From the NCBI GenBank assembly GCA_050506795.1, contig JBJHCF010000042.1, forward strand, positions 1-49,071: a stretch of DNA of 49,071 nucleotides, given 5' to 3'. The position numbers and the translations under genes are program-made. A model generated the notes under the pieces. That model worked only from the letters and a program-made list of their open reading frames with translations, did not search any database and was not told the origin of the DNA. The DNA comes from Opitutia bacterium. Its GTDB lineage: Bacteria; Verrucomicrobiota; Verrucomicrobiia; Opitutales; T3Sed10-336. Shown one piece after another: positions 18,851-29,472 of this stretch (its first letter is position 1; each line of letters opens with the position of its first letter).

Positions 18851-21800
18851 TTATCCGGGCTCTGAATCGCCGTTTGAGTCGGGAATAAGCGCCTCTCGTA
18901 AGGTGTCGAGAAGCTTGGCCGCGGTGTAGGGTTTGTGCAGGAAAAAAACGGAGCCTTTCGCGGCGATTCGTGCCTCGTTTTCCCGAGAGCTGAGACCGCT
19001 GGCCGCGATAATCGGAATTTTCGGGTCTTCCCTGCGAATCGCCTCAATCGTTGCTGCGCCATCCATGATCGGCATCATCATGTCGGTGAGAACCAGGTCG
19101 ATGGAGTTGCGATTCTCTCGATACTTTTTGATGCCTTCAGCGCCGTTGGAGGCGACCACGATACGGTAACCAAAGGCTTCCAGGGTTTGTCGCGTAATGC
19201 ATCTTACCGAGGCCTCGTCGTCGATTAACAGGACGAATTCCCCCGAGCCCCGTGGAAGCAGGGTGTTCCGCCGGCTTTCGACCAGCAATTCCTGTTCTCC
19301 GGCCGCGGGCAGGTACAATTTGAACAGGCTGCCTTTTTTCACCTCGCTGTCGAGGGTCGCAAAGCCGCCATGTCCCTTAAGAATACTCAATACCGTGGCA
19401 AGCCCGAGGCCGGTGCCTTTTCCAGGTTCCTTGGTGGTGAAAAAGGGGTCGAAGATCTTGGGCATCAGATCGTCGGGGATTCCGATTCCACTATCCTCAA
19501 CCTCTATCAACACGTGAGGCCCCGTCGAACCCTGACGGTTGATGTGAACGAAATGTTCATCCAGGACCACATTGGAGACAGCGAGCCGCAGTGTCCCTCC
19601 GTCGGGCATGGCGTCGCGCGCGTTGATACACAGGTTGAGCAAAACTTGGTTGATCTGAGTTGGGTCGCCCAGCATGGGCCAGACCCCGGATGGGGGTTCC
19701 GCCTGCAACTGAATGTTCTTGGGAAAGGTTTCCGCGATGATCCGAACCACGTCGTTGAGTACGTTCTCCGGATCGATGGGGATTCTGTCGCCCGGGGTAC
19801 CGCGGGCGAAGGAAAGCACCTGCCGCACGATATCGGCGCCGCGCTGCGCGCTGCTCTCGATGGTATCGATGATCTCCAGGTCGGGTCGGCTCAAGCTCCC
19901 ATGGCGCAGAAGTTCGGTGGCCATGAGGATAGGCGACAGAATGTTGTTAATGTCGTGGGCGATGCCTCCCGCCAGGGTGCCGATTCCCTCCATGCGCTGC
20001 GCGCGGAGGAATTGTTGTTCGAGTTTTTTCCGTTCGGTGATGTCCGTGTTGATATCGAGGATCGAAATGGGCCGACCGTCGTTGTCTCTAACCAGACTCC
20101 AGCGCGATTCCACCAGGATGGGTTCGCCGTCTTTCCGCACCTGGCGAAACTCGCCCCACCATTCTCCATCCTGTAGAACCGCCCGGATTGCTTCTTCAAA
20201 GCCTTCCGGAACCTGGTAGATCAATTGACGCACATCTGTCCCCATGGCCTCTTCCGCCGTCCACCCGTAAATTCGCTCCGCGCTCTTATTCCAGAAGGTG
20301 ATGATGCCGTCGAGGTTCCGTACAAGGATGGCATCCTGAGCCTTGTCCAGAAGGGCGGCCTGCTCGGCCAGACGGTTTTCCGCTTCCTTGCGCGTGGTGA
20401 TATCGTGGAAATAAACCGCCAGTCCTTCCTCGGAAGGGTAGGCGCGCACTTCAAACCAGGTATTCAGGGGAGGGTAGAACTCGTCGAATCCGACGGTGTT
20501 ATCGCTTTCCAACGCGCGTCGGTATTCAGTTTCGAAGGTTGTTCCTCGCGCTTCCGGAAACGCTTCCCAGACAACACGACCGAGCAGGCCTTTCCGGCGC
20601 CTTTGCAAAAGACGTTCCGCCTCCTGGTTGACGTAGGTGAAACGCCAGTCGTGATCCAGGGTGAACAAGGCGTCGGTAATGCTTTCCAGCGTGGTGGACA
20701 AACGCCCGGCGAGGCGGCGGGTTTCCTCGGCACTTTCCTTTTTCTCCGTGATATCCTGGAACGCGCCGCGCACTCGGGTGACGATGCCCTGTTCATCGGG
20801 AACGGCCCGGCCGATGGTGCGAACCCAGACCCGGCGACCGCGGGCAGTGATGATCTGCAGCTCTTCATCATACGGGGTGCCCTGATTGATGCAGGCGGTG
20901 AAAACCTCCCGAAGGCGATCGCGGCACTCGGGGGCATAGTAGGCGATTCCGTCTTCGATAGTCGGTTGGGTTCCGGGGGCATGTCATGGATAGCGCAAAC
21001 CTCGTCCGACCAGTAAACCCGGTTTTCGGTGAGATCGACTTCCCAACCGCCGAGCAGGGCGGCCTGGCCGGCGATCTTCAGAAGGGCTTCGCTGTGGCGA
21101 AGCTTTTCTTCGGTCTGTTTGCGTTGAGTGATATCCTCGGTGACCGCGATAATATTGGGCGGACGACCGTCGGTGGTACGCATCAGGGAAACGCTGGCGC
21201 GTACCCAAACGATGGAGCCCTTCTTATGGAGGCATCGTTTTTCGATCGTAAAGTGGTCGACTTCCCCGGCGAGCAGCTTGGTGATCCAGTGAAGGTTGTT
21301 GGACCGGTCCTCCGGGTGGGTCACCGCGGGGAAATCCATTTTGCAGAGTTCGGTTTCCGAATAACCGAGCATTGTGCAGTAACTCGGGTTCGCCATAATG
21401 TAGCGCCCGTCGGCCCACGTGATTGCGATGCCGGCTCCCGCCGCCGCGAAGGTGGCGCGGATACGATCCTGGTACTCGCGCAGCGCTTGTGCGGTGCGAC
21501 TGCGTTCGACCGCCAGAGTGACGAGTTTAACGGCGGCCGTGACCCACTTCAACTCGCCTTCCTGAGGGTGTCGCGGGGTAAGGTGGTACACCGCGACGGT
21601 GCCCAGGATTTCGCGGTCGGAAGAGAAAACGGGAACCGACCAGCAGGAGTGCAGGCCGAGGTCGAGCGCGATTTCCCGAATGTTTTCCCACTCCGGATCG
21701 GTGGTGATGTCTTCGGTGATGACGGTTTTTCCCTGGAGGGCGGCCAGAGATGAGGCGCCCATCCCCTCCTGCAGGGGGATGGGTTTTTCTTTGATGCGGC

Positions 21801-22401
21801 GCGAAAACTCTCCGGGCAGGTTGGGCGCCGCGCCCAGGACGAGGTGTGTGCCGTTCGGGTCAACGAGTAGAATCGAACATAAGGGGCGGTTGGTTGATAG
21901 CGGGAGACTCTCGATACGGCGCGCGATGTGCCCGAGGATCTCGGGCAACGGGCGGTTTTCCAGGATAAGTTCGAGCACCTCTCCCTGCCCGGTGGAGAAT
22001 GCTTCCACCAGGCGTCGTTGCCGGCGATCACCGGCGTCCCGCAATTCGTGCTCCACGGCGGGTCCCAGTCGGGTCAGGTTTTGCTTGAGGATGTAGTCGT
22101 TGGCTCCTTGCTTTAAAGTCTCAACGGCGACCTCCTCTCCGATGGTGCCGGAGACGATGATCACGGGAATATCCAGTCCGGTGTCCCGGATGATTTCCAA
22201 CGCCTCCAGGGCGTCGAAGCCTTCCATGCTGAAATCGCAGAGAATGATGTCCCAGTCCGACGATTCCAAAGCCCGACGGAGTTGGTCGGCATTAGTGATG
22301 CGCGTCGCCTCAAAAATCAGTCCGTGACGCTGCAGCGCTTGCTGCATCAGCAGAAAATCGTCATCGGAATCTTCCGCGATCAGTAAACGCAGTGACCTCA
22401 T
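18851..22401 (-). pseudogene. Hybrid sensor histidine kinase (REC-GAF-4xPAS-HisKA-HATPase-REC) split by a 1-nt frameshift near 20975-20979 (true lesion or assembly error)
   Basis: ORF 20464-22401 encodes REC-GAF-PAS and breaks mid-PAS at HDMPP. The PAS continues in the frame of ORF 18851-20773 as GTQPTIEDGIAYYAPECRDRL...VWVRTIG...VRGAFQDITEKK, then GIAHDINN, QVLLNLCINARDAM, GTGLGL and a C-terminal REC. Confidence 0.88.
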
Positions 22402-22841
22402 CGTTGATCCGGAGGGGTTTCGTTCAGCAAGAGCCAGTAAAGTCCCAATTGGCGCGTGGCCTCGATGAACTCGGTAAAATCAACCGGCTTGCGGACGTAG
22501 CTGTTGCAGCCGCGTGAATAGGAGGAAAGGATATCCCGATCGTCTTTGGATGAAGTCAGCACCACCACCGGAAGGTAGCGGGTGCTCTCGGACTGGCGAA
22601 TGCGCTCCAGCACTTCCAGCCCGTCCATCTTCGGGAGTTTCAGGTCCAACAGAATCAGTGTGGGAAGTCTCCGGGTGCGAGGCGCGGTCTCCGATTCCTT
22701 CCCGAAAAGGTGTTCGACGGCCTCGACTCCGTCCCGCGCCACCACGACTTCATTCATGATATTGTTTTTTTTCAGGGCGAGCAAGGTCAGTTCCTCGTCG
22801 TCCGGATTATCCTCCACCAGTAAAATGTACTTATCATTCAT
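22398..22841 (-). CDS. Single-domain response regulator, Rcp1-like
   Basis: ILLVEDNPDD, LILLDLKLPKMDG, VVVLTSS, NSYVRKP and LGLYWL motifs; ATGA overlap with the downstream kinase. Confidence 0.93.
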   Translation of the reverse strand: MNDKYILLVEDNPDDEELTLLALKKNNIMNEVVVARDGVEAVEHLFGKESETAPRTRRLPTLILLDLKLPKMDGLEVLERIRQSESTRYLPVVVLTSSKDDRDILSSYSRGCNSYVRKPVDFTEFIEATRQLGLYWLLLNETPPDQR

Positions 22842-22859
22842 GGAAATGCGCCCTTATTG

Positions 22860-24899
22860 TCAGCCGAGTGTGAACGTGAATGTGGCGCCTTTCCCGGGGT
22901 CGGCTTCGGCCCAAACATCGCCGCCGTGAAGTTGGACAATCCGTTTAACAGTGGCAAGTCCGATGCCCGTTCCGGGGAACTCGGACATGGCGTGCAGTCT
23001 CTGAAACGGAGAAAAAAGTTTGTGGGCGTAACGCATGTCGAATCCCACCCCGTTGTCGCGGACGCGAAAGAGCGCGGCACCGTCGCCGTTGCTCAGCCGG
23101 TCAAAGAGAATACGGGGCGCTTCCGATTTCGAGGTGAACTTCCAGGCGTTGCTCAGGAGATTCTCCAGCATGATCCGCGAGAGCCGGGCGTCGCCGAAGG
23201 CTCGGATATTCGGTTCGATTTCCACCGCGACCTCCCTCTGCGGATCGTGTTGCCTCAAGTCCCGCACGATTTCGACCGCCAGATCGCTGAGGTTGACCTC
23301 ACTCCGCTTAAGCTCGTGACGGGAAATACGCGACAGTTGCAGCAGATCGTCGATTAACTGTCCCATCCGTTCGGCGGCGGCCCGCACCCGGTGCAGGTAT
23401 CCCGGCGCCGCTTCGTCGAGCTGAATCGCGGGGACCTCCTGCAACGCCTGCGCGAAGCCGTCGATGCCGCGAAGCGGGGCGCGAAGGTCGTGCGACACGG
23501 AGTAACAGAAGGATTCGAGTTCCTGGTTTACCGCCTGCAGCCGGGCGGTCCGTTCCGCGACTCGTGTTTCCAGTTCCCGGTTCATATTGGCCAGTTCCTT
23601 CTCGCCTTCGATCCGGTCGGTGACGTCGTCGACGAGTGAGAATATGGAGGACATTTTCCCGTTTTCGTCGAAACGTACCGAATTGTACCACTCGCAATGG
23701 ATCGTCCTTCCGTCGCGGGTGAAATTACGGTTCAGGCAAAGTTTGTCCGTCGTCGTCCCGCTGAGGAGCTTCGCCATGTAGTCGCCTACCCGTCCGGCGT
23801 CGTCGGGGTGAACGAAAGCCCAGTCGTCGGGATGGAGTCCGAGGGTTTCTTCCGAGGACCATCCGAAGAGCTGTTCCGCGCGAGGAGACCAGTAGCTCAC
23901 ACGAAAATCGCTGTCCCATTCCACGACCGCGAGCGGGGAATTGTTGATGTGAAAACTCAGCAATTCATGCGCTTTATGCAATTCGCGTTCGTGTTTGCGC
24001 AAGGCATCTTCCGATTCCCGCAGGCTCGCTTCCATCCGGTGGCGTTCGGTTACGTCGTAGGCGAGTACCAATTCGGCCTTTCGCCGGTTGAACATCAGGG
24101 GATGCGAGGTGATCTCGGCAAAGATGATTCGTCCGTCTCTCAACTGATGGCGCCAGATTCCGGCATAGTCGATTTCGTCCGATGGACGGGAGGAGACGTT
24201 TGACACGTTTTCAAGCAAAGCCGGCACGTCGTCCTTTGGCCGGATGTCCTTGAGCGTCATCCGGAGGAACTCCTCCCGGGTGTACCCGTACGCTTGCACC
24301 GTGGCTTTGTTGACGGCGAGAAAACGCAGGTTCTCCAGGTCGTAAATCATCAGGGGTTGTGGATTGCTTTCGAAAAGGAGCCGGTAATGCTCTTCCGATT
24401 CACGCAACCGTTCCGCTTGCCGATCTGAAACTGAAGGATCGTGATCGGAGTCCGGGATCGGCAACGGGTTCTCCGACGGCCCGCCGGTGTCCGGCCGGGA
24501 GACTCTGCCGTTGTTGCCGGTGCGAGGAGACTTTTCCGCGCTTCGGTTCCATACCTGCAGGCGAGCCAGAAATTCTTCTCGCGTCGAGGGCACCAACAGG
24601 CAATCGTCCGCCCCGGCTTCGAGCATGCGGGTCACGGATTCGCTGTCCGGCGGGGCGGGCATAAGAGCCACGACCTTGAGGCCGGGTGCGGTCAACCGAG
24701 TTTTTCGACAACAGGCAACGGCATCTCGGTCGACCGAATCGCAACAGAGAAAAACCATGGCGGGTGGCTCCGGTGCGGCAGCCAGAGACTCGGGGTTCTG
24801 AATGATCGTCGGCGCGGGGAATTCCGCACTCCCGGGCCAGGTTTTCAGAGCGGAGCCAGCCGCTCGCGAATTCAGTGAAATAATGGTGAAGAGCGGCAT
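22860..24899 (-). CDS. Sensor histidine kinase: degenerate receiver-like N-terminus, 2 PAS domains, phytochrome-type HisKA/HATPase (start ATG 24899 or TTG 24920)
   Basis: ELESFCYSVSHDLRAPLR, NLLSNAWKFT, DNGVGFDM, LFSPFQRLH and GTGIGLA motifs; two PAS/PAC repeats. Confidence 0.9.
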   Translation of the reverse strand: MPLFTIISLNSRAAGSALKTWPGSAEFPAPTIIQNPESLAAAPEPPAMVFLCCDSVDRDAVACCRKTRLTAPGLKVVALMPAPPDSESVTRMLEAGADDCLLVPSTREEFLARLQVWNRSAEKSPRTGNNGRVSRPDTGGPSENPLPIPDSDHDPSVSDRQAERLRESEEHYRLLFESNPQPLMIYDLENLRFLAVNKATVQAYGYTREEFLRMTLKDIRPKDDVPALLENVSNVSSRPSDEIDYAGIWRHQLRDGRIIFAEITSHPLMFNRRKAELVLAYDVTERHRMEASLRESEDALRKHERELHKAHELLSFHINNSPLAVVEWDSDFRVSYWSPRAEQLFGWSSEETLGLHPDDWAFVHPDDAGRVGDYMAKLLSGTTTDKLCLNRNFTRDGRTIHCEWYNSVRFDENGKMSSIFSLVDDVTDRIEGEKELANMNRELETRVAERTARLQAVNQELESFCYSVSHDLRAPLRGIDGFAQALQEVPAIQLDEAAPGYLHRVRAAAERMGQLIDDLLQLSRISRHELKRSEVNLSDLAVEIVRDLRQHDPQREVAVEIEPNIRAFGDARLSRIMLENLLSNAWKFTSKSEAPRILFDRLSNGDGAALFRVRDNGVGFDMRYAHKLFSPFQRLHAMSEFPGTGIGLATVKRIVQLHGGDVWAEADPGKGATFTFTLG

Positions 24900-24967
24900 G
24901 GACAACTGGAAAGAGTACAACGGCGAGTTTATTCCCGAATGACTTATGCCGCAAGTGAAAAGGGGAT

Positions 24968-26194
24968 TCAGAGTCCGGTAAATATACGGTTCTCATGCAG
25001 GCAACAGGCCAATTCCCGCAGGATCGGAGTGAAATCCCGGGGATCGTCGAGTTGCCTATGCGCTTCCGTCAGGCGGGCGCTCAGATTTCCGGCGCGCAGG
25101 ATGTGCTCCAGGTTCTTTTGCGCCGGCATCGGAAGGTCGGAACTATGGCGATGGAAAAGGTGCCGCCAGAAATCTCCCGCGGATTGGACGGCGGGCGGGA
25201 TTGCCAAGGCTTCCCGAAGGTCGGTCAGCTGCAGCGGCGCATCCAGGCCCGCTTTCACCACTTCGTTCAATTGGGCGGTCCGGGCCGAAGCAGGTGAGGA
25301 AATGGCCCATTGCCGCAGGGATTCCTCGGGATGTTCGACCAACTCGCGCAGGACGCGGATGAAGAGTTGGGCGATGGCCAGATCGGCGGCGGGGCATTCC
25401 TGGACGTCCAGAAGCCGAATTTCGATGGCGTTGCGGTCGAACCGGGCGATCGCGCCGCGGGAGTTCAACCATTCGTGGGCAAGGATTCCTCGCGGGTCGT
25501 GGGGAGCGATCTGCCGGTAGATCGGTTGCAGAATCCTTTCCTCGTATTCCCGGCGCGAAAAAACGGCCTCGGGAATCACCGGCCCGACGATGGCCGGGCA
25601 CTTGTCCTGGTTGTGACGGTAGATGTCGATTCGCGTGTCCGCCAGGCCGGTGAGCGCGCCGTCGCGGAACGGGCTCGCGGCCGTGAGGGCGGGCATCAGC
25701 GGCAGCAGCAACAGCACCGCCGAATGCAGGCGGGCGAACTCGTCGTCGTCGGCGAAGGGAAGATTCAGGTGACAGCTTTGCAAATTGAACCAGCCGTGAC
25801 CATGACAATCAAAGATCGAATCGTAGAGTGAATAGATTTCACGCCCTTCGTATGGCCAGGTGAACGATTCGCGCGCCGGATCCATAAAGGGGTGCATGGG
25901 TCCGGGCAACAAACGTGCTCCCCGTGCCGAGAGTTTCTCCTGGATAAGTTGGATCGCGGCGACAAAGCGCTCCTCCATCGTCTGGAAGTTTGCCAGCGGT
26001 TCCGGTGTTTTGACTTCGATGACATGGGCCGCCAGTTCATTGGAAACGGCGCAGTCGCCAATCGTACAGTCGTTGAGAGGTTCGCCGCAAAAATCGGAGA
26101 TCAGCTCCGCCGCCATCGGCGCGACTCCGAAATCGGTTGCCCGTACGATCATGTACTCGAGTTCAATTCCGAATTTCTCAAACAGGTGAATCAT
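24968..26194 (-). CDS. Glutamate-cysteine ligase family 2 (GCS2)-like carboxylate-amine ligase
   Basis: FGIELEYMIV, NELAAHVIEVKT, MHPFM, QSCHLNLPF, AASPF and NSRGAIARFDRNAIEIR motifs. Confidence 0.85.
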   Translation of the reverse strand: MIHLFEKFGIELEYMIVRATDFGVAPMAAELISDFCGEPLNDCTIGDCAVSNELAAHVIEVKTPEPLANFQTMEERFVAAIQLIQEKLSARGARLLPGPMHPFMDPARESFTWPYEGREIYSLYDSIFDCHGHGWFNLQSCHLNLPFADDDEFARLHSAVLLLLPLMPALTAASPFRDGALTGLADTRIDIYRHNQDKCPAIVGPVIPEAVFSRREYEERILQPIYRQIAPHDPRGILAHEWLNSRGAIARFDRNAIEIRLLDVQECPAADLAIAQLFIRVLRELVEHPEESLRQWAISSPASARTAQLNEVVKAGLDAPLQLTDLREALAIPPAVQSAGDFWRHLFHRHSSDLPMPAQKNLEHILRAGNLSARLTEAHRQLDDPRDFTPILRELACCLHENRIFTGL

Positions 26195-26247
26195 GGCGCG
26201 TTACCCGTGAATCGGCATTGGTAGTTTGTGCTCACGAATAAACGACA

Positions 26248-27723
26248 TTACACCGCGGGATGTTTGGCTTTTTCGATACGGGTGAGAAATTCTTTCATTA
26301 TTCGGAGGTAAAGTTCGTCGTGCAGGAAACAGTCTTCCACCCCGTGTTCTATGTTGGGGTTGTCGTTGACTTCGATCACGTAAACCTCGCGGCCGCGTTG
26401 TTTGAGGTCCACGCCATATAGCCCGCGTCCAATCAGGCTGGCGGCGGCGAGCGCCGCTTTGAGCACAGCCGGGGGGGCGTCGTCCACCGGCACGGCGTCG
26501 AAATCGCCCTCCTCAAAGCGACCGGAAGCCTCGTGATTGTAAATCTGCCAGTGCGCTTTGGTCATGAAGTAACGGCAAACAAAAAGAGGAATGCCGTTGA
26601 GCACGCCCACCCGCCAGTCAAATTCGGTGGGGAGGAACTCCTGCGCCAGCAGCAGATCGGACGACTTCAGGAGACGCTGGGCGGTTTTTTTAAGGCTCTC
26701 GGCGTCGTCCACTTTGAATACGCCAAGGGAGAAGGCGCTGTCGGGAATCTTTATTACCATGGGGAATCCGAGCGATTTCGCCGCGTGTTCCAGGTTTTTG
26801 GCGTAAAGAATTGTTGTCCTTGGTGTACGGATACGATTCTTTCGCAGCAGTTCGTGGAGATAAACCTTGTTGCAGCAGCGTCGAATTGAGTCGGGATCGT
26901 CGATCACCGCCATGCCTTCCCGCTGTGCCTTGGTGGCGAAGCGGTAGGTGTGATTGGTGAGAGAGGTCGTTTCGCGAATGAAGAGTGCGTCGAATTCCAG
27001 CAGTCGCGGGTAGTCGGTTCGGGTGATAAGCTCGACATTCATTCCAAGGCGTTTGCCGGCTCTGACAAACTTCTGCAATGCCTTGCGGTTCGATGGAGGC
27101 TGCTTGTCTTCGGGGTTCTGCAGAATCGCCAGGTCGTATCCGGTCAATTCTCTGCTGCGAACCGTCGTCCAGCGACGTTTGAGGAAGCTGTCGATGGCCT
27201 CCTTGACTTTGTCCAGGTGATTCGGCGGAACCTCGCTTAATCCGAGTGGGCGGAGTGAACGGATTTCCCAGCCCTTTTCCCGGCGCCAGGTGAAGGTCAC
27301 CCGGAAAAGGGGACAAGGGAAGTGAAAGAAAAGCCGTTGGGCCAGCCTGGCGTGGCGTTCGGCCAGGTTGAGTCCGAAGTACACGCTCAGGACAAAATCG
27401 TCTCCGGATATTCGGGCGAGACTTCGGCGAATAAGGGTGTTGAGGTCCTCCAATTCAACGCCGTAGATGCGCTTGGTGGAGAGGTTGTGCAGAGTGCGGG
27501 CGGTGGCCATCACGCGGTGACGCCGCGCTTCCGCCAGCAGGGAAATGAAATAGCCGGTACTCAGGGTATGGCCGTGACGGCAGAGATTGATGAGGCGGAA
27601 GCCGGACGCGGTGTAGGCGTCGTTGATGAAGTACTCTTCGGCGGAAACCACTTCGTAGCCGGTCCATTCGGGAGACCAGTCTTTGAGGTCGTCTACCACG
27701 ATCAGATTGCGCGACGGTTTCAA
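26248..27723 (-). CDS. RimK-family ATP-grasp ligase with N-terminal RLAN domain
   Basis: INLCR..STGYFISLLAEARRH (RLAN); DALFIRETT, NKVYL, VIKIPDSAFSLGV, QEFLPTEFDWRVGV, GLYGVDLK and VIEVNDNPN motifs. TTG start overlaps the upstream TGA. Confidence 0.9.
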   Translation of the reverse strand: MKPSRNLIVVDDLKDWSPEWTGYEVVSAEEYFINDAYTASGFRLINLCRHGHTLSTGYFISLLAEARRHRVMATARTLHNLSTKRIYGVELEDLNTLIRRSLARISGDDFVLSVYFGLNLAERHARLAQRLFFHFPCPLFRVTFTWRREKGWEIRSLRPLGLSEVPPNHLDKVKEAIDSFLKRRWTTVRSRELTGYDLAILQNPEDKQPPSNRKALQKFVRAGKRLGMNVELITRTDYPRLLEFDALFIRETTSLTNHTYRFATKAQREGMAVIDDPDSIRRCCNKVYLHELLRKNRIRTPRTTILYAKNLEHAAKSLGFPMVIKIPDSAFSLGVFKVDDAESLKKTAQRLLKSSDLLLAQEFLPTEFDWRVGVLNGIPLFVCRYFMTKAHWQIYNHEASGRFEEGDFDAVPVDDAPPAVLKAALAAASLIGRGLYGVDLKQRGREVYVIEVNDNPNIEHGVEDCFLHDELYLRIMKEFLTRIEKAKHPAV

Positions 27724-28418
27724 GCTTCGGCGGGTTTTATGGTGAGCAGGTTGGCGTCGTAGGTGACGATGCCGAGCATGACCGCGTTGATGAAGCGGTG
27801 AACATCCACGCGGTAATACCCGCGAGGGTTGAAGGGATTCCCTTTATAGGGATCGGAGACCACCACCTCGTCGGACTCGTCTTCGTAGCCGTTGACCACC
27901 AGGAAGTGGCCCACGGGAAATCCTTCGAGGTCGTCGCTCCTTCCGTCCGGAAGTTCACGGACGGTCTGGTAAAGGTAGGTCGCGCTGAGCCCCGTGAGGA
28001 TGGGGGTGCCTTTGCTCAGGAGGTGGCGCACCAGGCGTGGGGTGAGGTCGTGGAAACGGAGGCGGCCGCCGAGTTCGAGGAATTGGATATATGCCTGGTG
28101 GGTCTCCACCAGTTTGAGGTCGTCCAGCATGGGGATGCGTTGCTGCAACTTTGCGATCATCTCTTCCGGTTCCAGGTTCCACCATGTCGGATCGAATATC
28201 TTCAAGTTATATGAATAGGTGGTGGCCCTGAAGCCCTGGCGCAACGCGTGCAGGGCCAGGTGCACCGAGACGGTTCCGCCTTCCTCGTCGCGCTCAATCT
28301 CGCCGATCAATTTATCCAGAGGGTAATCCCGCCGGTGAAAGCGGTAAATCGCGTGCAGACAAGTCGGCCCGCAGGTGGATTCGGTTGGCTGGGCGGGCAT
28401 CTCCAGTGGAATGTGCAT
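27720..28418 (-). CDS. Papain-fold C39-like cysteine peptidase (start placed at ATG 28418)
   Basis: QPTESTCGPTCL (oxyanion Gln and catalytic Cys), GHFLVVNGY (His) and VVSDPY (Asp). No signal peptide. Confidence 0.82.
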   Translation of the reverse strand: MHIPLEMPAQPTESTCGPTCLHAIYRFHRRDYPLDKLIGEIERDEEGGTVSVHLALHALRQGFRATTYSYNLKIFDPTWWNLEPEEMIAKLQQRIPMLDDLKLVETHQAYIQFLELGGRLRFHDLTPRLVRHLLSKGTPILTGLSATYLYQTVRELPDGRSDDLEGFPVGHFLVVNGYEDESDEVVVSDPYKGNPFNPRGYYRVDVHRFINAVMLGIVTYDANLLTIKPAEA

Positions 28419-28683: not shown

Positions 28684-29472
28684 ATGGCAACCTACATTAT
28701 CGGAGATGTGCATGGCTGTTATCGCACGCTCATGGAACTCCTGGGGAAATTCGATTGGCGCCCCGGCGAAGATCGGCTGGTGTTCACCGGCGACCTCATC
28801 AATGGACCCAATTCGCTGAAGGTCCTTCGCTGGGCCTGCGAGAATGAGGTGGAGGCGGTGCTTGGAAATCACGATATTCATTTTCTAGCCGTGCTGGCGG
28901 GAGTGCGACGGGTGCGCAAGAAAGACCGGTTTTATGACCTGCTGCAGGCAGAGGACCGGGAAGAACTGGCGGAATGGCTGCGCACGCGTCCTTTTCTCAT
29001 TCGCCTCAACCCCGATGCTGTGGTCGTTCATGCCGGTTTGTTGCCGTGCTGGGATATTAACGCCGCCGAGCGGATTGCCGCGGAGTTGGCCGCCGCGATG
29101 CGAGGGTGTTTTCCGCAGGATCTCTTTCAGGACACCCCCGACCACTGGAGTGATGACCTGCCCTGGGCGGACCGTGTTCGCGTCGGGGTCAATGCCATGA
29201 CCCGCATGCGGGCGTTGACCGCCGACGGTCGAATGGACCTGTCATGCAAGAGCCCGCCGGAAGTTTTGCCCAAAAATCTGGTGCCCTGGTTCGCCGCACC
29301 CGACCGGGCCTGGCGAGGGACCAGGGTCTTTTTCGGCCATTGGGCCAGTCTGGGTCATCGCATCGCCGAAGGCGTGGTCGCCCTCGATTCAGGATGCGTC
29401 TGGGGCAACAAGCTCACGGCCTTTCGCCTTGAGGATCAGACCGTATATCAGGTCAGCAGCCAGAAACGGTAA
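28684..29472 (+). CDS. apaH: Symmetrical bis(5'-nucleosyl)-tetraphosphatase
   Basis: YIIGDVHGC, VLGNHD, VHAGLLP, NAMTRMR, FGHWASLG and LDSGCVWG..LTAFRLED motifs. Confidence 0.9.
   Translation: MATYIIGDVHGCYRTLMELLGKFDWRPGEDRLVFTGDLINGPNSLKVLRWACENEVEAVLGNHDIHFLAVLAGVRRVRKKDRFYDLLQAEDREELAEWLRTRPFLIRLNPDAVVVHAGLLPCWDINAAERIAAELAAAMRGCFPQDLFQDTPDHWSDDLPWADRVRVGVNAMTRMRALTADGRMDLSCKSPPEVLPKNLVPWFAAPDRAWRGTRVFFGHWASLGHRIAEGVVALDSGCVWGNKLTAFRLEDQTVYQVSSQKR

Follow-up and report, generated by a model that had tools for sequence, protein, structure and literature searches.

A papain-fold peptidase, an RLAN-RimK ligase, and a GCS2 ligase form a conserved, uncharacterized gene cassette in an Opitutia bacterium

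We analyzed a 49,071-nt stretch of DNA from an Opitutia bacterium (contig JBJHCF010000042.1 of assembly GCA_050506795.1; hereafter the window), in which three genes on the minus strand form a compact cassette. The first encodes a papain-fold (C39-like) cysteine hydrolase of 232 amino acids counted from its ATG (27720..28418), the second an RLAN-RimK-type ATP-grasp amide ligase of 491 amino acids with a TTG start (26248..27723), and the third a divergent carboxylate-amine ligase of 408 amino acids with the GCS2 (glutamate-cysteine-ligase) fold (24968..26194). As described in an earlier sequence-only reading of the window, the open reading frame (ORF) coordinates and the sequence place the TTG start of the ligase and the TGA stop of the peptidase in a shared TTGA (27720..27723), and a 53-nt spacer (26195..26247) separates the ATP-grasp gene from the GCS2 gene. 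Within the ligase, the N-terminal RLAN domain recognized by Pfam covers amino acids 29 to 175 (27199..27639, minus strand), and the catalytic ATP-grasp module, as located by alignment and structure comparison, covers amino acids 196 to 484 (26272..27138, minus strand).

The domain assignments of that earlier reading are borne out by Pfam matches over cut-off for all three proteins, and the catalytic motifs that it judged to be intact are invariant in the homologs that we chose for scoring (92 peptidases, 60 ligases, and 70 GCS2 proteins). The peptidase matches Peptidase_C39 and C39_2 over cut-off, has no Pfam Phytochelatin match, and carries Q10, C16, H171, and D189, which are found in 92/92 aligned homologs. 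Its close relatives, which are 230 to 246 amino acids in length, can be aligned from their first residues onward. Because the catalytic Gln and Cys reside within residues 1 to 16, the protein appears by eye to have no room for a signal peptide, in agreement with the earlier view that none is present. The AF2 model (pLDDT 94) has a papain-like fold for which three relatives are tied as nearest: C39 domains (VIA Z 15.7, 135 aligned residues, root-mean-square deviation 2.0), the Nostoc phytochelatin synthase Alr0975 (15.3, 159, and 2.5, respectively), and the endoisopeptidase PeiR (14.9, 146, and 2.3, respectively). The modeled fold favors neither a hydrolase nor a transpeptidase. A single-sequence PDB search with the peptidase gave nothing significant, and prediction of a peptidase-ligase complex yielded a score of 0.00 in two runs, which has no bearing either way. 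The peptidase has relatives in more than 7,500 protein clusters, and so does the GCS2 protein, both numbers being lower bounds.

The papain fold and the Gln-Cys-His-Asp residues are common to this peptidase and to the C39 leader peptidase of bacteriocin exporters (PCAT). Whereas the latter is fused or linked to its exporter and accompanied by a precursor peptide, the cassette peptidase is a stand-alone ORF that is not fused to an ABC exporter. Moreover, neither an exporter nor a precursor peptide recurs near the cassette among the neighboring ORFs that we clustered (at least 45 amino acids, within 2.5 kb, 107 loci).

The ligase matches the Pfam models RLAN (4e-37) and RimK (2e-9), both over cut-off, and remains below the cut-offs for rimK_fam (57.5 bits versus 143.4) and for the GshB models (15.9–36.7 bits versus 272–408). 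Its closest relatives, which are 66 to 76% identical, come from Opitutales/Puniceicoccaceae assemblies. The motif E451-x-N453-D-N-P is present in 60/60 homologs, and the invariant residues of the ATP-grasp module are R250, K286, K325, R371, D439, E451, and N453. In the AF2 model (pLDDT 87, pTM 0.70), amino acids 196 to 484 most closely resemble ArgX (VIA Z 28.4), LysX (28.2), and RimK (27.3), followed by GshB (22.3). R250 and R371, which are retained in 60/60 homologs, are the equivalents of RimK R64 and R189, and the equivalent of RimK N262 is also kept. PMC10375531 assigns R64 and R189 to the two glutamate sites, and PMC10092738 likewise places them at glutamate sites. The FRSNLHRGG loop of RimK is replaced by an invariant HW-QI (HWQI) motif in the ligase family, and the position aligned to RimK R8 is occupied by N or D. 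The order of secondary structure elements hints that RLAN may be a degenerate second ATP-grasp, although an hhalign comparison of the N- and C-modules was not significant (probability 0.6–0.7%, E 0.08–0.1). Separately, an RLAN match over cut-off in the control genome of Bacteroides thetaiotaomicron identifies this species as a carrier of the ligase family that is amenable to genetic work.

The third protein matches Pfam GCS2 over cut-off (1.5e-28) and lies below all NCBIfam equivalog and subfamily cut-offs (at best 57.1 versus 176.4 bits); a single-sequence PDB search with it returned no matches. E11-x-E13, E53, E60, H142, E258, and R260 are invariant in 70/70 proteins, and the alignment indicates that the metal and glutamate-site residues are retained. 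The subfamily has additional invariants of its own at W113, Y121, H133, and W135. A conserved arginine matching Arg220 of plant glutamate-cysteine ligase (GCL) or the ‘RY’ of YbdK was found in neither of two disagreeing alignment registers, in which the correspondence of positions with the plant enzyme is partly our presumption. According to PMC6463388, Arg220 lies in the cysteine pocket of plant GCL and binds the C-terminal carboxyl there. Because no conserved arginine matches Arg220 and the subfamily has its own set of invariant residues, the amine acceptor is likely not cysteine.

These results bear on the possibility that the cassette produces a glutathione-like thiol, in which case GCS2 would form gamma-Glu-Cys, which the ATP-grasp ligase would extend to three residues, and the papain-fold enzyme would remove the last of these or polymerize the product in the manner of phytochelatin synthase. 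Indeed, the glutathione and phytochelatin route (GshA or plant-type GCL, GshB, and phytochelatin synthase) employs these three folds, and in an identical chemical order, and the peptidase model ties with Alr0975. The genome, whose assembly is 97.8% complete, has no match to canonical RimK, GshB, or GshA, and its only GCS2 match is that of the cassette. However, the cassette proteins fall below all cut-offs, the cysteine-pocket arginine is not conserved in either register, and the ligase is RimK-type, being closer to RimK and LysX (Z 27–28) than to GshB. Eight RLAN-positive genomes of the order have no GCS2 match of any kind, and the cassette is patchy, given that its GCS2 is found in only 9/251 genomes of a phylum sample. 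Glutathione synthesis is therefore compatible with genome content but not favored by sequence, and we consider a thiol product to be quite improbable. Modification of ribosomal protein S6 is likewise unlikely because the S6 protein of this genome, which ends in ...VERVGA, has no acidic C-terminal tail. Since none of the three proteins reaches an NCBIfam cut-off, none would qualify as canonical RimK, GshA, YbdK, or GshB. Neither of the two simpler roles that the earlier reading set against its own proposal, glutathione synthesis and S6 modification by a canonical RimK, is therefore supported.

The cassette is conserved across phyla. Among 231 relatives of the ligase in GTDB, we examined the best 80 loci and located partner genes by tblastn; in this and all other neighborhood counts, the relatives are not independent of each other. 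A GNAT and/or DUF3335 gene is present without GCS2 in 59/80 loci (43 with both, 15 with a GNAT match only, and 1 with DUF3335 only). GCS2 without GNAT is found in 18/80, comprising 12 loci with the peptidase, 5 with the peptidase and an N-formylglutamate-amidohydrolase-like (FGase-like) gene, and 1 that has GCS2 and FGase but is cut upstream. The remaining 3/80 have the ligase only, all close to contig ends. The order peptidase, ligase, GCS2 occurs in 17/80 loci, from Verrucomicrobiota, Planctomycetota, and Bacteroidota. From at least 520 metagenome loci anchored on GCS2, we also examined the best 80, dropping from each count those with too little flanking DNA. The ligase is encoded upstream of GCS2 in 69/73 loci (at least 300 nt of upstream DNA), the peptidase upstream in 33/49 (at least 2.6 kb), and an FGase-like gene downstream in 39/61 (at least 800 nt of downstream DNA). 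In the 16/49 loci that lack an adjoining peptidase, unrelated genes precede the ligase. Within the source family, RLAN is present in 7/12 genomes and the trio in all seven, six of which are the same contigs as loci L020–L025. All 7 newly examined regions from the phylum sample also carry the trio.

Thus, the co-occurrence of the three genes in other genomes that the sequence-only reading had anticipated is observed, whereas its portrayal of a minimal write-write-erase trio must be revised. The fixed core is the ATP-grasp and GCS2 pair, the peptidase can be absent, and an FGase is usually present as a fourth enzyme. Beyond these genes, no fifth gene, carrier, small acidic partner, precursor, or transporter is recurrent in the 107 loci, where the largest neighbor cluster covers 5. 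The cassette differs in this respect from the LysX/ArgX-LysW systems, whose ligases are its top structural matches (Z 28) but which include a LysW-like carrier and downstream kinase and reductase genes, none of them recurrent here. Some rarer neighbors were also observed. A nitrilase-family protein of 508 to 518 amino acids with a putative GNAT-like N terminus is encoded upstream of the cassette in 4/107 loci (L147, L174, L180, and L184). Two small clusters of same-strand neighbors, located downstream in L044, L052, and L059 and upstream in L195, L215, and L221, have no NCBIfam match and are putatively DUF155/RMD1-like.

The absence of an amidohydrolase gene, as noted in the sequence-only reading, is correct for the locus but not for the genome. 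A profile match and a tree identify a cassette-type FGase-like gene on another contig (C31:26278-27000), where it sits behind an LL-diaminopimelate aminotransferase gene. This is the single FGase-family match of the genome, and its product is 33 to 36% identical to cassette FGases and keeps 29/30 positions conserved in their clade. In a tree of 63 sequences built by a quick IQ-TREE search, it belongs to a clade of its family (SH-aLRT 100) that is nested among operon-encoded copies. The same clade includes the FGase encoded directly behind a second GCS2 gene of genome G011, and a canonical-type FGase lies far outside. We therefore interpret the C31 gene as an intact but displaced FGase of the cassette clade. 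The source genome and four of its relatives within the family carry the FGase gene on another contig, and the trio genomes G003 and G007 of the family have no match to the C31 protein but do have weak FGase matches.

Among the GTDB loci, FGase-like genes are found only with GCS2 (6/18 versus 0/59 of the GNAT type). The congeneric genomes G008 and G005, which have neither an RLAN nor a GCS2 match, keep a long-branch FGase in which 5/30 conserved sites are changed, as if constraint had been relaxed after partner loss, in what would be one event in one genus. The FGase usually belongs to the cassette as its fourth enzyme, although the link is not strict. As a side observation, the second GCS2 of G011 (contig C382) is of the same subfamily, has its FGase 3 nt downstream, and has no ATP-grasp or peptidase ORF upstream; this is possibly a stand-alone pair.

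The GNAT-bearing loci represent a sister form, the GNAT(-DUF3335) and RLAN-RimK pair (PF11814/PF14401), whose ligase is of the same family (44–51% identity). As in the cassette, a papain-like peptidase is often encoded directly upstream, but it belongs to another family and has no BLAST match with the cassette peptidase. A RimI-like acetyltransferase is present instead of GCS2, and there is no FGase. GNAT and GCS2 never occur together in the 80 GTDB loci, and an L083-type GNAT query matched 0/80 of the GCS2-anchored metagenome loci. Of 6 GNAT-only loci inspected from the 15, 4 have the GNAT directly upstream of the ligase and 2 (L032 and L066) have no same-strand GNAT. In the ligase tree, GCS2 and GNAT contexts are interleaved, with 7 changes for the GCS2 label. 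We also considered that GNAT-type genomes might obtain gamma-Glu-Cys from another GCS2. This idea is unsupported, as 8/9 RLAN-positive, non-trio genomes of the same order, each with a full-length ligase, have no GCS2 match in a search for GCS2 rather than for GshA or GshB.

Viral contigs yielded 9 further loci that encode the ligase (L259–L267). RLAN is missing altogether from seven of these ligases and incomplete in another, and the ninth is truncated where its contig ends; judging from the alignment, the catalytic residues persist without this domain. A GNAT gene lies directly upstream in 4/9 loci and overlaps the ligase ORF as called, and the one GNAT tested is RimI-like. Peptidase, GCS2, and FGase genes are absent from all 9 loci. 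The phage ligases of L259 and L260 are encoded between terminase and portal genes. Positions of these phage ligases include L262:4555-5867, L264:4573-5834, L265:4496-5903, L266:4493-5861, and L259:4989-5924.

GCS2 and GNAT families both acylate amines, and their alternation beside the same ligase suggests a pathway that caps an amine and then extends the product. Our observations concern the order of the genes, their folds and intact catalytic residues, the pattern of co-occurrence, and the displaced FGase; the substrates and products of such a route are all inferred. GCS2 would use ATP to activate the gamma-carboxyl of glutamate and cap an amino acid X at its amine, giving gamma-Glu-X, where X is probably not cysteine and most likely glutamate. 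The RLAN-RimK ligase would then phosphorylate the free carboxyl of gamma-Glu-X and add at least one acidic amino acid, again most likely glutamate. The papain-fold enzyme would trim or transpeptidate this extension. FGases hydrolyze N-acyl-glutamate, and the zinc hydrolase encoded on C31 would remove the acyl group to recycle the cap, a role proposed because FGase is seen only with GCS2. In the sister form, the cap would be acetyl rather than gamma-glutamyl and would come from the RimI-like acetyltransferase, such that the ligase would need an N-blocked acceptor from either source. Similar syntheses, in which an N-acylating enzyme acts before an ATP-grasp ligase, make the small peptides NAAG (NAT8L with RIMKLA/B) and NAGGN (Ngg), although the protein families differ and the cap predicted for the cassette is gamma-glutamyl.

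We therefore propose that the cassette builds, and later recycles, a small N-capped gamma-glutamyl peptide inside the cell, an interpretation that we favor tentatively and that could well prove wrong. It accounts for the exchangeable first partner, the occurrence of FGase only with GCS2, the ligase fold with R250 and R371, and the lack of a recurring fifth gene. Several findings weigh against it. The nearest structural relatives of the ligase, RimK, LysX, and ArgX, act on protein C-termini, and the sister GNAT most resembles the protein acetylase RimI (68–78 bits, below the cut-off of 86.4). A phage RLAN-less ligase with a GNAT would be more easily explained by modification of a macromolecule. 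Because the FRSNLHRGG loop and R8 of RimK are not kept, glutamate as the donor for the ligase is not assured. Repeated partner swapping is not demonstrated because the starred branches of the ligase tree force only 1 change of the GCS2 label. Ligases L111–L114 have neither partner in their loci and no GCS2 match in their genomes, and the trio genomes G235, G266, and G234 of the phylum, as well as G026, gave no FGase match.

Some of these same findings are consistent with reversible protein tagging. The ligase would attach glutamates, or else some other acidic residue, to the C terminus or a side-chain carboxyl of a protein encoded elsewhere. GCS2 or GNAT would modify an amine on that protein, and removal of the marks would fall to the peptidase and the FGase-like enzyme. 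The resemblance of the ligase to protein-modifying enzymes, the RimI-like GNAT, and the phage RLAN-less ligases located beside GNATs or inside head-gene clusters are in keeping with this scheme. RimK with RimB (Escherichia coli, Pseudomonas) provides a precedent for a ligase-protease pair, as presented in PMC11957791. The cassette resembles that pair in having a ligase beside a protease, an ATP-grasp fold (Z 27), and equivalents of R64, R189, and N262. However, its ligase has an extra RLAN domain, about 19 to 22% identity to RimK, and the HWQI loop, and its protease is a cysteine rather than an aspartic enzyme. Moreover, GCS2 and FGase are additional, and S6 lacks the acidic tail. No target gene is recurrent nearby in the 107 loci, the GCS2 and FGase families, going by name, act on small molecules, and the core often stands without an adjoining peptidase (16/49). 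We judge tagging to be on the unlikely side, yet a serious contender. Of the two products offered by the sequence-only reading, a small gamma-glutamyl peptide fits somewhat better than protein polyglutamylation, and neither is demonstrated.

A further alternative is a poly-glutamate polymer for storage or osmoprotection, for which GCS2 would make a primer, the ligase would elongate it processively, and the two hydrolases would mobilize it. In vitro, RimK synthesizes poly-alpha-glutamate and is stimulated in this by RimB, as reported in PMC10375531 and PMC11957791, and the enzyme set would provide synthesis and breakdown with no exporter. However, the RimK features R8 and FRSNLHRGG are not kept, no nitrogen- or osmotic-stress gene recurs near the 107 loci, and the GNAT form is left unexplained. 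We would be surprised if a polymer were the product.

The cassette belongs to a type of neighborhood that was predicted earlier. Combinations of RLAN-RimK, COOH-NH2 (GCS2) ligase, papain-like peptidase, and FGase genes (PF14401) were reportedly predicted by Iyer, Abhiman, Burroughs & Aravind in 2009. The families and their order are the same here, and the FGase, which in that type optionally follows GCS2 directly, is displaced in this genome. According to PMC4431377, Iyer et al. 2009 repeatedly encountered linkage of ATP-grasp, COOH-NH2 ligase, and GNAT genes, and the products of such linked genes often catalyze successive peptide ligations, in line with the small-peptide interpretation. RimK-like enzymes of a different group, exemplified by TgiB, make small dipeptides, as described in PMC13674229. 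In the literature that we searched, which included few subscription papers and no supplements, no experimental study or product of the RLAN-RimK/GCS2 cassette was found, in line with the earlier statement that no product is established.

The genes that flank the cassette (apaH, sensor kinase, and hflX) are local to the lineage. A symmetrical Ap4A hydrolase gene, apaH (over cut-off; 28684-29472, plus strand), is divergent from the cassette and does not recur beside it at the other loci. A run of genes for a PAS sensor kinase, a response regulator, and a hybrid kinase (18851-24920, minus strand) starts 47 nt past GCS2. The last two large ORFs of this run (20464-22401 and 18851-20773) overlap in different frames, which suggests a frameshift within one gene. 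A promoter and terminator scan across the cassette gave chance level only (3 versus 1.5 and 4 versus 4.0, respectively), and the GC content of the cassette, 0.57 to 0.60, is similar to that of the window.

The cassette is real, conserved across phyla, and uncharacterized, and is a further member of a widespread type that was reportedly predicted long ago. A bolder view, which we regard as unlikely, is that the clade of RLAN ligases is central to a single undescribed chemistry in which gamma-glutamyl and acetyl caps can replace each other and the substrate is general enough for phages to hijack it by means of an RLAN-less ligase and a GNAT. In its most surprising form, this would be a reversible protein-glutamylation code with a writer pair, two erasers, and a nonribosomal target. 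Although not exceptional in itself, the copy described here contributes the findings that an FGase may be moved elsewhere and yet remain intact, and that GCS2 and GNAT are mutually exclusive beside the ligase. The RLAN-less phage versions represent a minimal, easily tested form of the system. Identification of the product would bring to light a new metabolite or protein modification of bacteria and, in a single stroke, assign functions to four families.

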